Of a stretch of DNA of 47,716 nucleotides, positions 23,274 through 36,723 are shown one piece after another. A program made the position numbers and the translations under genes. The DNA comes from Anaerolineae bacterium (GTDB lineage: Bacteria > Chloroflexota > Anaerolineae > Anaerolineales > UBA11858), in assembly GCA_011176615.1 (NCBI GenBank), contig DUEG01000005.1, positions 1 through 47,716 on the forward strand, read 5' to 3'. The notes below the pieces were generated by a model. The model did no database searches and was not told where the DNA came from. It saw only the letters and a program-made list of their open reading frames with translations. Positions within the stretch are counted from its first letter, which is position 1, and each line of letters starts with the position of its first letter.

Positions 23274-23344
23274 CTGGGGGCAGAGGATTCGAACCTCTAC
23301 TTACGGATTCAGAGTCCGCTGTCCTACCGTTAGACGAGCCCCCA
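23274..23344 (-). tRNA. tRNA-Gln (anticodon CTG), CCA not encoded
   Basis: Reverse complement TGGGGGC...GCGGA-CTCTGAA-TCCGT...AGAGG-TTCGAAT-CCTCT-GCCCCCA-G; U1-A72 pair typical of bacterial tRNA-Gln. Confidence 0.96.
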
Positions 23345-34488: not shown

Positions 34489-34516
34489 ATGATATTATCA
34501 ATAATTGAGATATAAT
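34489..34516 (+). promoter_or_regulatory. Probable glmS promoter
   Basis: ATGATA-16 bp-TATAAT (34511-34516); predicted start near 34523. Confidence 0.45.
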
Positions 34517-34586
34517 CTGTTTCACTAAATAAACATTACTATGGAATTTAAAAAGGAGGTGCATATAAGAATTTAATGGGAAAGAT

Positions 34587-34817
34587 AGCGCAAGGGCCAA
34601 AAATCTTGATTTATATGGATTTGACGGTTGACGAGGATGATGGTTCCTCTCAGAGACGAGAGGATAAGTGGTGATCAAGCATACTATTGATACACACAAA
34701 AATCGAATAATCAGCGGAAGCCATCCGGGTTGTCCATTACCCGTTTCCTTTCCCTCCAGTTAAACTTTATATTCAAAACTCATGAGGAATTATGAGCACA
34801 AAAATATGAAGAATGGA
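34587..34817 (+). ncRNA. glmS ribozyme (GlcN6P-activated) with two insertions
   Basis: A^GCGC cleavage site 34587/34588; TGACGAGG; ATCGA; GCGG; P2 GATGGTT/AGCCATC; P3 CGGGT/ACCCG; P4 CTTTATATT/AATATGAAG; P4.1 CTCATGA-GGAA-TTATGAG; P3.1 TCCATT/AATGGA; directly upstream of glmS. Confidence 0.92.
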
Positions 34818-34881
34818 AAAATATTAAAAGATCAGGTAAGTTCATTAGGGTAGAAAACATTATTATGGAGGGTTTCTTGCT

Positions 34882-36723
34882 ATGTGTGGAATTGTTGGGT
34901 ATATTGGGCAAAAGGACGCAACGCCTATCGTATTAAATGGGCTTAAGCGGTTGGAATATCGTGGCTATGATTCGGCGGGTTTGGCTATCTTGCAAGACGA
35001 AACGATTAAAATTAGACGCGTTGCTGGGAAGATTGACAAATTATTTGAACTAGTTTCTGAAAGTCCATTAAAGGGGAATATCGGGATTGGGCATACTCGT
35101 TGGGCTACTCATGGGGAGCCTAACAAAACCAATGCACATCCACATTTAGGAAGCAATAAGGATGTCGTAATTGTCCATAATGGCATCGTAGAAAATTATT
35201 TAGAATTAAAGGATGAATTGATTGAAGAGGGGGTGAATTTCAAATCCGAAACTGATACCGAAGTTATTGTACATTTAATTGAGTTATTTCTTACTTCAGG
35301 GTTAAGAATTGATGAGGCTGTACGCATGGCAATAATGAAAATACGCGGCGCTCATGGTATTGTTGTATTTTCAAAAAATGAACCCGATAGGATTATTGCT
35401 GCAAGGATAGGGAATGCTGGAGGGGTGGTAATAGGGGTTGGAAAAAATGAAATGTTTATAGCGTCTGATATTCCCGCAATCCTAGATCACACTAGAAAAA
35501 TGATTTTTTTAGAATCCCAACAGATGGCAATAGTAAAATCAAATGAAGTGGACATTTATGACCTTAATGGAAATGCTTTGACGTACGAAGTGCATAATGT
35601 GAATTGGGATCCTGTTTCTGCCGAAAAGGGGGATCATAAACATTTTATGCATAAAGAAATTCACGAGCAAGTCAGATCTTTAATAGATACTATTGCAGGA
35701 AGAGTGAATTTCACAGATTATTTAATTAAATTTAATGATTTGAGTTTGGACAAAGAACTTGCGATAAGCATAAATAAAATATTCATCACCGCTTGCGGGA
35801 CTGCTGCTTATGCGGGAATGGTAGGAAAAATATTAATTGAAAAAGTTGCAAGGATCCCGGTAGAAGTGGTCATAGGGTCTGAATTTAGGTATAGTGACCC
35901 GATAATTGATGAAAATACTATCGTTTTGGCTATAAGCCAATCAGGAGAAACTGCAGATACATTGGCAGCAATGGATGAAGGGAAGAAAAGAGGGGCAAAA
36001 ATATGGGTAATTGTTAACGCAATAGGTTCACAGGCAATGCGTATAGCGGATGGGTATATATCGATGCAAGCGGGACCTGAAATTGGTGTAGCCTCCACGA
36101 AAGCATATACTGCACCTTTGGTTGATTTGTATATGCTAGCGATATTATTAGGGGAATTGCGTGATTCAATTTCAGAACAACAAAGAAGAGATTTAGTTAA
36201 TAATTTACGACTTGTGCCAGATCTTGTGGGAGAATGTTTAACCCGCGAGGATGAGATAGTTGAAATCGCAAAAAGATTAGAGAATATGCAACATTGTTTG
36301 TATTTGGGTAGAGGGATCAATATGCCAACGGCTTATGAAGGGGCTTTGAAATTAAAAGAAATTTCGTATATCCATGCTGAAGGTTATCCTGCTGGAGAAA
36401 TGAAGCACGGACCGATCGCATTAATTGATAACAATATGCCAGTAATTGTTATTTCGCCGAAAGATCCGTGGTATGAAAAAATGATTAGTCAAATTGAGCA
36501 GGCAAAGGCAAGAGGGGGATTTGTTATCGCTTTAGCAACAGACGGGGATGAATTGATAAAGGATATTGCAGATCGTGTGATTTGGGTTCCTGAAACGCCA
36601 TGGATGTTAAGTCCTGTTATCTCTATTATTCCTTTGCAATTACTTGCTTATCATATTGCCCATCAAAGAGGACTTGATGTTGATCAACCCAGAAACTTAG
36701 CCAAGTCCGTAACTGTTGAATAG
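34882..36723 (+). CDS. glmS: Glutamine--fructose-6-phosphate aminotransferase
   Basis: MCGIVG, LEYRGYDSAG, GHTRWATHG, SQSGETADT, C-terminal PRNLAKSVTVE. Confidence 0.98.
   Translation: MCGIVGYIGQKDATPIVLNGLKRLEYRGYDSAGLAILQDETIKIRRVAGKIDKLFELVSESPLKGNIGIGHTRWATHGEPNKTNAHPHLGSNKDVVIVHNGIVENYLELKDELIEEGVNFKSETDTEVIVHLIELFLTSGLRIDEAVRMAIMKIRGAHGIVVFSKNEPDRIIAARIGNAGGVVIGVGKNEMFIASDIPAILDHTRKMIFLESQQMAIVKSNEVDIYDLNGNALTYEVHNVNWDPVSAEKGDHKHFMHKEIHEQVRSLIDTIAGRVNFTDYLIKFNDLSLDKELAISINKIFITACGTAAYAGMVGKILIEKVARIPVEVVIGSEFRYSDPIIDENTIVLAISQSGETADTLAAMDEGKKRGAKIWVIVNAIGSQAMRIADGYISMQAGPEIGVASTKAYTAPLVDLYMLAILLGELRDSISEQQRRDLVNNLRLVPDLVGECLTREDEIVEIAKRLENMQHCLYLGRGINMPTAYEGALKLKEISYIHAEGYPAGEMKHGPIALIDNNMPVIVISPKDPWYEKMISQIEQAKARGGFVIALATDGDELIKDIADRVIWVPETPWMLSPVISIIPLQLLAYHIAHQRGLDVDQPRNLAKSVTVE

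Follow-up and report, generated by a model that had tools for sequence, protein, structure and literature searches.

Pairing of a junction insert with the leader and the ribosome-binding site in Anaerolineae glmS ribozymes

Textbooks present the glmS ribozyme as a riboswitch that lacks an expression platform, with cleavage acting solely through the exposure of a 5′-OH to RNase J. The glmS leader of an Anaerolineae bacterium raises the question of whether this holds throughout the family, as the ribozyme in this leader carries a long internal junction that is complementary both to the RNA just upstream of the cut and to the Shine–Dalgarno (SD) region of glmS. The locus lies on a stretch of 47,716 nucleotides (‘the window’; assembly GCA_011176615.1, contig DUEG01000005.1) from a genome assembly of 2.1 Mb that is 82.7% complete. 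A sequence-only reading of the window had proposed a switch with two states: in the uncleaved RNA the upstream segment GGGAAAG would hold the anti-SD, and cleavage triggered by glucosamine-6-phosphate (GlcN6P) would release the 5′ piece and let the anti-SD cover the ribosome-binding site, without the help of a nuclease. Here we follow that proposal through the window, its relatives within the class and predicted RNA folding.

The ribozyme and its junction insert

The identification of the ribozyme is secure: it matches Rfam RF00234 over the full model (1–167) with 47.4 bits, the gathering score being 37 (E 4.8e-8; 41.3 bits in a second scoring), and it ends upstream of the start codon of the gene directly downstream, placing it in that gene's 5′ UTR (Table 1). 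This gene is glmS, as its product combines an SIS domain (Pfam, 7.6e-48) with a class-II glutamine amidotransferase domain (GATase_6, 8.6e-19). The conserved core elements AGCGC, GACGAGG, AUCGA and GCGGA are all present in the window, and columns A16 G17 C18 G19, A60 C61 G62 A63 G64 G65 and C144 G145 G146 A147 are invariant in an alignment of 78 sequences, from which RNAalifold recovered P1 and P2 plus inner hairpins, with double changes in 22 of 27 predicted pairs. P3, P4 and P3.1 rest on the cmscan alignment and on visual inspection, and are less formally tested than P1 and P2; the loop–tail pairing of P3.1 co-changes in relatives, for example as GCCAC/GTGGC in L011 (read by eye; relatives are cited by locus number).

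Table 1. Positions of the ribozyme, its pairing segments and neighbouring features in the window.
Feature	Position	Strand	Remarks
Promoter-like ATGATA-16 nt-TATAAT	34489–34516	+	10/12 consensus matches; start would be near 34523
SD-like AAGGAGGTG	34553–34561	+	In leader part lost on cleavage; start codon at usable distance absent
glmS ribozyme	34576–34821	+	RF00234; predicted cleavage between A34587 and G34588
Leader segment U, GGGAAAG	34578–34584	+	5′ strand of helix A; proposed anti-anti-SD
P3 hairpin CGGG/CCCG	34726–34743	+	Strands 34726–29 and 34740–43
P3.1 pseudoknot	P3 loop TCCATT 34733–38 : AATGGA 34812–17	+	Window sequence
P3–P4 junction	34744–34764	+	21 nt
Junction insert TTTCCTTTCCCTCCA	34744–34758	+	15 nt, lineage-specific; in P3–P4 junction
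CTTTCCC	34748–34754	+	Junction strand of helix A; pairs with U
CCCTCCA	34752–34758	+	Junction strand of helix B; pairs with SD
CCC	34752–34754	+	Common to CTTTCCC and CCCTCCA
GTTAAA	34759–34764	+	Canonical, 3′ of insert; P4 starts at 34765
TGGAGGG	34866–34872	+	glmS ribosome-binding region; 3′ strand of helix B
glmS (glutamine-fructose-6-phosphate aminotransferase)	34882–36723	+	ORF of 613 aa, ATG 34882, N-terminus MCGIVG

Several peripheral elements of these ribozymes vary in length. At 34645–34711 the window carries a 65-nt insertion in distal P2, compared with 10 nt in the Rfam consensus; two extra hairpins form in it and are conserved across the class, with compensatory changes. In six relatives (L010, L015, L024, L021, L035, L044) the P1 stem contains insertions of 70–170 nt made of short tandem repeats, with units such as CCAACCGA and GACTAC, which disrupt the Rfam alignment. 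The window also holds a tRNA gene on the reverse strand at 23274–23344 (Rfam tRNA, 63.2 bits), unrelated to the ribozyme.

The P3–P4 junction is where the locus departs from the family. It spans 21 nt against 5 positions in the Rfam consensus, a length that the sequence-only reading had rightly singled out, and cmscan accommodates the additional nucleotides as an insertion of 26 nt. At its 3′ end the junction keeps the canonical GTTAA(A), so that the novelty is the 15-nt insert TTTCCTTTCCCTCCA. All four heptamers on which the proposed switch was built, GGGAAAG, CTTTCCC, CCCTCCA and TGGAGGG, are present as described, including the CCC that the two junction heptamers share. We refer to the pairing of leader with junction as helix A, whose leader strand ends 3 nt before the scissile bond, and to the pairing of junction with SD as helix B.

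How widespread is this type of ribozyme? Of 41 close relatives, 35 have a match to the glmS family, as do 84 of the 151 genomes in a class-wide sample and 46 of the 151 in a phylum-wide one. The junction insert is present across the Anaerolineae class sample (79 loci, 78 of them counted; L072 was excluded everywhere, as the rule found no cleavage site), and a pattern scan of named public genomes placed the window type in Anaerolineae/Anaerolineales, with records that include Anaerolinea thermophila, Longilinea, Bellilinea, Brevefilum and Thermanaerothrix. Ribozymes from the phylum's other classes are compact (150–172 nt in 25 of 26, the remaining one 209 nt), and no junction insert was seen by eye in these 26. 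The pattern-defined set of named Anaerolineae genomes may overlap the class sample, and identical sequences were removed when the two were pooled.

Two helices on one junction

Within the window, the two 7-bp matches are individually of modest rarity. With the junction fixed, 20000 shuffles of a 15-nt leader window and a 26-nt SD window, composition kept, gave a Watson–Crick run of at least 7 with the junction at the following rates: leader, P=0.027; SD, P=0.015; both together, P=0.0005. Among the other genes of the genome that have a GGAGG SD (n=288), 25 could form at least 7 bp with this same junction and 154 at least 6 bp; complementarity to the SD alone is thus not rare, and the case rests on comparative evidence. 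It might still be supposed that a leader and an SD that are both purine-rich complement a pyrimidine-rich linker by chance and to no function, given that low-complexity tracts pair in many registers and that more than half of the other SD windows reach 6 bp. We consider this extremely improbable in view of the joint shuffle result and of transversion covariation that affects both strands across families.

Helix A is nearly universal in the sampled ribozymes: at least 6 bp can form in 74 of 78 members of the class sample, and again in 74 of 78 in the pattern-defined set. The gap between its end and the scissile bond is 2–3 nt in 53 of 78 cases and 0–1 nt in 11. The leader strand is not uniformly purine, as leader-side pyrimidines are matched on the junction side in 27 cases (examples in Table 2). 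When leaders and junctions were permuted among 72 unique leaders, the cognate duplex energy of -12.8 kcal/mol stood against -10.44 +/- 0.24 kcal/mol for permuted partners, and 0 of 2000 permutations matched it. A column-wise count on the MAFFT alignment gave a weak signal (76.0% paired versus 72.0% shuffled, and 78.5% with partners slid by -1); the low-complexity purine and pyrimidine tracts can pair in several registers. RNAalifold on the same alignment, in which P1 and P2 were recovered, did not return helix A or B. Register-free permutation tests were chosen because the tracts are not aligned in pairing register.

Table 2. Examples of the pairings in the window and in relatives.
Pairing (strand 1 / strand 2)	Locus	Strand 1	Strand 2
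Helix A (leader / junction)	window	GGGAAAG	CTTTCCC
Helix A (leader / junction)	L052	GGGGAC	GTCCCC
Helix A (leader / junction)	L059	CCATGACG	CGTCATGG
Helix A (leader / junction)	L058	GGAGAAGCA	TGCTTCTCC
Helix A (leader / junction)	L070 and L075	GGGGAAGCG	CGCTTCCCC
Helix A (leader / junction)	L060	GGGGGACA	TGTCCCCC
Helix A (leader / junction)	L041	GGCAAAG	CTTTGCC
Helix A (leader / junction)	L016	AAGGTTG	CAACCTT
Helix A (leader / junction)	L026	AGGAAAT	ATTTCCT
Helix B (junction / SD)		CCTCCTG	CAGGAGG
Helix B, non-canonical (junction / SD)		CCTCCGAAATA	TATTTCGGAGG
Helix B, non-canonical (junction / SD)	L058	TTCTCCTC	GAGGAGAA
Helix B, non-canonical (junction / SD)	L052	GTCCCCT	AGGGGAC
Helix B, non-canonical (junction / SD)		ACCCCCAAG	CTTGGGGGT
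Paralogue (junction / downstream element)		CCCTTCCAAG	CTTGGAAGGG
Paralogue (junction / downstream element)		CCTTCCAT	ATGGAAGG
Paralogue (junction / downstream element)		CCCTTCCGTGAA	TTTACGGAAGGG

Helix B is also common, reaching at least 6 bp in 47 of the 57 glmS-linked members of the class sample (at least 7 bp in 35 and at least 8 bp in 18) and in 52 of 66 glmS-linked cases of the pattern-defined set. The GGAGG:CCTCC core is unable to covary, which limits the test to its flanks. On the 5′ side of the SD, Watson–Crick pairing extends beyond the core by 1.11 versus 0.57 +/- 0.10, a value that 0 of 5000 permutations reached (84 unique sequences), and the first flanking pair on that side is Watson–Crick in 49 of the 84. 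The flanking pair on the 3′ side is conserved and does not covary: the base after GGAGG is G in 36 of the 44 class-sample glmS leaders and in 52 of the 84 pooled sequences, versus 24 of 290 SD-like sites genome-wide. The most telling examples are the non-canonical pairs of Table 2.

The proposed switch thus passed the comparative test set for it beforehand, both helices being kept and covarying across Anaerolineae, and this pattern indicates that the A/B arrangement is a trait of the lineage and not a chance match. Helix A also occurs where helix B falls below 6 bp, in 10 of 57 glmS-linked relatives (for example L053, L059 and L060), and must therefore have a role of its own that is not solely that of guarding the anti-SD.

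Competition, cleavage and decay

The two helices compete, as the sequence-only reading had supposed from the shared CCC of the window. In 44 of the 47 cases with a helix B of at least 6 bp, A and B have at least 2 junction nucleotides in common (most often 3–6, at most 8); because they use the same nucleotides, they cannot coexist, nor can both be constitutive. The leader segment often copies the SD region, with GAGGGA in the leader against GGAGGG at the SD in L004, a relative of the same genus, and in L061.

Predicted folding favours helix A early and gives a mixed picture later. We used nearest-neighbour models, which are without pseudoknots or tertiary structure, on 45 sequences selected for both helices scoring at least 6 (five long leaders were omitted from some runs). 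When the nascent RNA is taken to stop 6 nt beyond the junction segment, the probability of helix A, P(A), averages 0.85, exceeds 0.5 in 40 of 45 sequences and is 0.99 in the window. With the leader intact and the RNA complete, mean P(A) is 0.30 and mean P(B) 0.44, and in the window the two stand at 0.49 each; in the 3′ product mean P(B) is 0.59 and reaches 0.85 in the window. When the 5′ fragment was removed in silico, 13 of the 45 sequences gained more than 0.1 in P(B) and none lost as much. The earlier proposal that the uncleaved RNA holds the anti-SD through GGGAAAG agrees with the folding predicted for the nascent transcript, but in the window's complete leader neither helix prevails: ensembles with A or with B enforced lie 0.4 kcal/mol apart, and the minimum free energy structure of the window with a 65-nt leader contains helix B in the intact and in the cleaved state. 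Likewise, the claim that cleavage lets the anti-SD occlude the SD agrees with the rise in P(B) from 0.49 to 0.85 in the window, but the SD is predicted to be mostly paired in both states, its mean unpaired probability (n=56, equilibrium folding) being 0.149 intact versus 0.116 cleaved. A control with shuffled leader segments gave 0.144, and the difference is not significant (Wilcoxon p=0.20).

These results can be read in a way that dispenses with a switch altogether: helix A could be a structural clamp that docks the 5′ leader and aids folding or catalysis, while the SD pairing damps glmS translation constantly and decay by RNase J does the regulating alone. Its appeal lies in the lineages that keep helix A without a clear helix B, in the frequent approach of helix A to position -1 or -2 beside the active site (including the 11 cases with a gap of 0–1 nt), in an SD predicted to be mostly paired before and after cleavage and in the prevalence of RNase J, described below. 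We nevertheless regard it as rather unlikely, given the use of the same junction nucleotides by both helices (up to 8 shared), the tendency of the leader segment to mimic the SD and the one-sided response of P(B) to leader removal.

The reading that we prefer, and to which we would give about even chances, is that of an Anaerolineae-type glmS ribozyme whose expression platform has three parts, placed within the ribozyme and around it. These parts would be the 15-nt pyrimidine insert of the P3–P4 junction, acting as anti-SD; the SD-like purine segment 3 nt 5′ of the scissile bond, acting through helix A as anti-anti-SD; and the glmS ribosome-binding site, the other partner of the insert through helix B. 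During transcription helix A would form first and hold the insert, as its covariation and predicted folding suggest; in the intact mRNA, A and B are predicted to compete for the shared CCC, with a balanced outcome in the window. Self-cleavage triggered by GlcN6P would then detach a 5′ fragment carrying the anti-anti-SD together with the upstream SD-like element, and the freed insert would pair with the SD and lower translation initiation. Cleavage-coupled occlusion of the SD is in our view a plausible, though inferred, mechanism and the best supported one.

One part of the original proposal finds no support, namely that the platform would work independently of a nuclease. The host genome has an intact RNase J gene (573.9 bits versus a cut-off of 400; a frame of 547 aa), as do 38 of 41 relatives by the same cut-off, and with RNase J present a nuclease-independent route is not required. 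RNase Y gave no match above its cut-off in the 82.7%-complete genome (best 20.7 bits), which does not imply its absence. Published work on Bacillus glmS describes decay of the 5′-OH product by RNase J1 and no expression platform (PMC10810187; PMC5473149), and according to Lou and Woodson (2023; PMC10810187) initiating ribosomes protect mRNAs against RNase J1. It is most likely that SD occlusion would assist 5′-to-3′ decay of the 5′-OH product by RNase J, barring ribosomes that would otherwise protect it, and would not replace that decay.

The proposed sequence of events supposes that transcription starts 5′ of the leader segment at 34578. A promoter-like site does lie upstream in the window (Table 1), but the scan that found it returned 4 sites versus 3.5 expected in shuffles, and the candidate is a lead only. 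In relatives L005, L007, L008, L010, L011 and L114 a TATAAT stands about 20–30 nt 5′ of the leader segment.

Between the candidate promoter and the ribozyme the window has the near-perfect SD-like motif AAGGAGGTG, and motifs of this kind recur: of the glmS-linked class members, 44 of 58 have an SD-like 5-mer 13–70 nt before the scissile bond, as do 53 of 66 of the pattern set, compared with 14 of 26 ribozymes of other classes, 2 of 20 that are not glmS-linked and 12 of 57 control windows. The motif mostly lies 26–54 nt 5′ of the cut site (19–65 in the class sample), and may be a ribosome-binding 5′ stabiliser or a standby site that cleavage removes. From this one could argue that the helices manage RNA decay and not translation, either by retaining the 5′ fragment along with its strong SD-like stabiliser or by shaping the access of RNase J to the 5′-OH. 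The recurrence of the element, also in the compact ribozymes without an insert, and the wide distribution of RNase J agree with such a role, which would however leave the covariation between the glmS SD flank and the junction unexplained; we think it distinctly improbable.

Two small reading frames were noted in these leaders. In the window, a 33-codon frame (MGKIAQGPK..., 34576–34677) starts with an ATG at 34576, overlapping the leader segment and spaced by 16 nt from the GGAGG 5′ of it, and extends into the ribozyme; by eye it is not conserved in relatives and is probably due to chance. In L050, L051 and L054 a short conserved frame reading V.(T)KRVLKKISTPF... lies between ribozyme and glmS; it starts at a GTG directly after the SD-like AGGAGGGA, and the junction pairs with that SD.

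Paralogues linked to glnA and relation to known systems

In 13 of 41 relatives the genome has two or three Rfam glmS hits. The additional loci (L016, L018, L023, L026, L032, L034, L036–L040, L042, L043, L045 and L048, plus L041 and L073) have an altered core (AGCGGCTG or AGCGACTG), a consensus-like TTGACA/TAnAAT promoter about 35 nt 5′ of the cut site, a conserved leader similar to ACAATTGAATA and the same helix A between leader and junction. Downstream, an element GGAAGGG, GGGAAGG or GGAGGGG pairs with the junction and covaries with it (Table 2), and a strong terminator hairpin follows 16–31 nt later. The gene after the terminator is glutamine synthetase (glnA), by Pfam in both of the 2 cases tested and, by eye, in a further 12 of 16 that share an LQF(T/S)D N-terminus; L041 and L073 have the GGAGGGG form of the element, and the frame in L041 is a marginal Glu_synthase match. 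As the downstream partner in these paralogues is not an SD, the helix between junction and downstream element exists even without one. An antiterminator role for this helix was considered but finds no support: of the 16 loci in which a terminator was found, 14 give it a predicted probability of 0.97–1.0, with the downstream element blocked or free alike. Complementarity between element and terminator was not above that of permuted controls (1448 of 3000 for the 5′ strand, 410 of 3000 for the 3′ strand).

The paralogues also bear on a reversal of the proposed coupling, in which a ribosome bound at the SD would free the insert, helix A would tune the cleavage rate and translation would thereby gate the ribozyme. 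Such a scheme draws on the same mutually exclusive helices, on the position of helix A against the scissile bond and on the protection from RNase J1 that initiating ribosomes are described as giving. It appears quite unlikely to us, given that the downstream partner in the paralogues is a non-SD element shortly before a terminator and that nothing found here ties leader pairing to glmS catalysis. In the Bacillus glmS ribozyme, one nucleotide 5′ of the cut site is reported to be enough.

Taking the preferred reading, cleavage-coupled SD occlusion, one step further, the Anaerolineae glmS ribozyme might be a true riboswitch-like device in which cleavage discards the anti-anti-SD and the junction ‘slider’ closes the ribosome-binding site, with the slider reused in the AGCGGCUG-core paralogues, under promoters of their own, ahead of a terminator that precedes glutamine synthetase or, possibly in two cases, a glutamate-synthase-like gene. 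This would amount to a small family of ribozyme-actuated elements controlling nitrogen assimilation, possibly with another ligand; we offer it as a tentative possibility.

What the comparison across genomes establishes is a conserved, covarying and mutually exclusive pair of helices that is peculiar to the glmS ribozymes of Anaerolineae, the window being a local instance of it. Our literature search returned no description of an anti-SD platform, of leader pairing or of a glnA-linked glmS ribozyme, although a prior description is still possible. The proposed mechanism, if true, would show self-cleavage driving translational control in a natural system, and would explain fast and tight repression even where ribosomes could protect the cleaved mRNA. 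Cultured relatives such as Anaerolinea thermophila exist, and the glnA-linked paralogues extend the question to nitrogen control.

Set beside known systems, the ribozyme shares with that of Bacillus subtilis the Rfam family, the conserved core, P1–P4 and P3.1, the location in the glmS 5′ UTR and an RNase J; it differs in the 15-nt junction insert that can pair with leader and SD, where the Rfam consensus junction has 5 positions. With translational riboswitches it has in common three segments whose mutually exclusive pairing would set access to the SD. In riboswitches the fold is shifted by ligand binding, whereas in this locus the ribozyme itself would sever the anti-anti-SD from the mRNA, making the change irreversible. 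Similar to the 5′ SD-like mRNA stabilisers named ‘STAB-SD’, the leader has a strong SD-like motif without an ORF near its 5′ end (34553–61), but here the motif, whose role is putative, is within the fragment that cleavage removes. A further parallel to the proposed output is synthetic: in hammerhead and twister aptazymes placed in a bacterial 5′ UTR, self-cleavage alters the accessibility of the SD (Felletti et al. 2016, PMC5052635). These are engineered devices with the SD sequestered in a ribozyme stem, in which cleavage turns expression on, whereas the Anaerolineae ribozyme would be their natural counterpart, in which cleavage would hide the SD and turn expression off.
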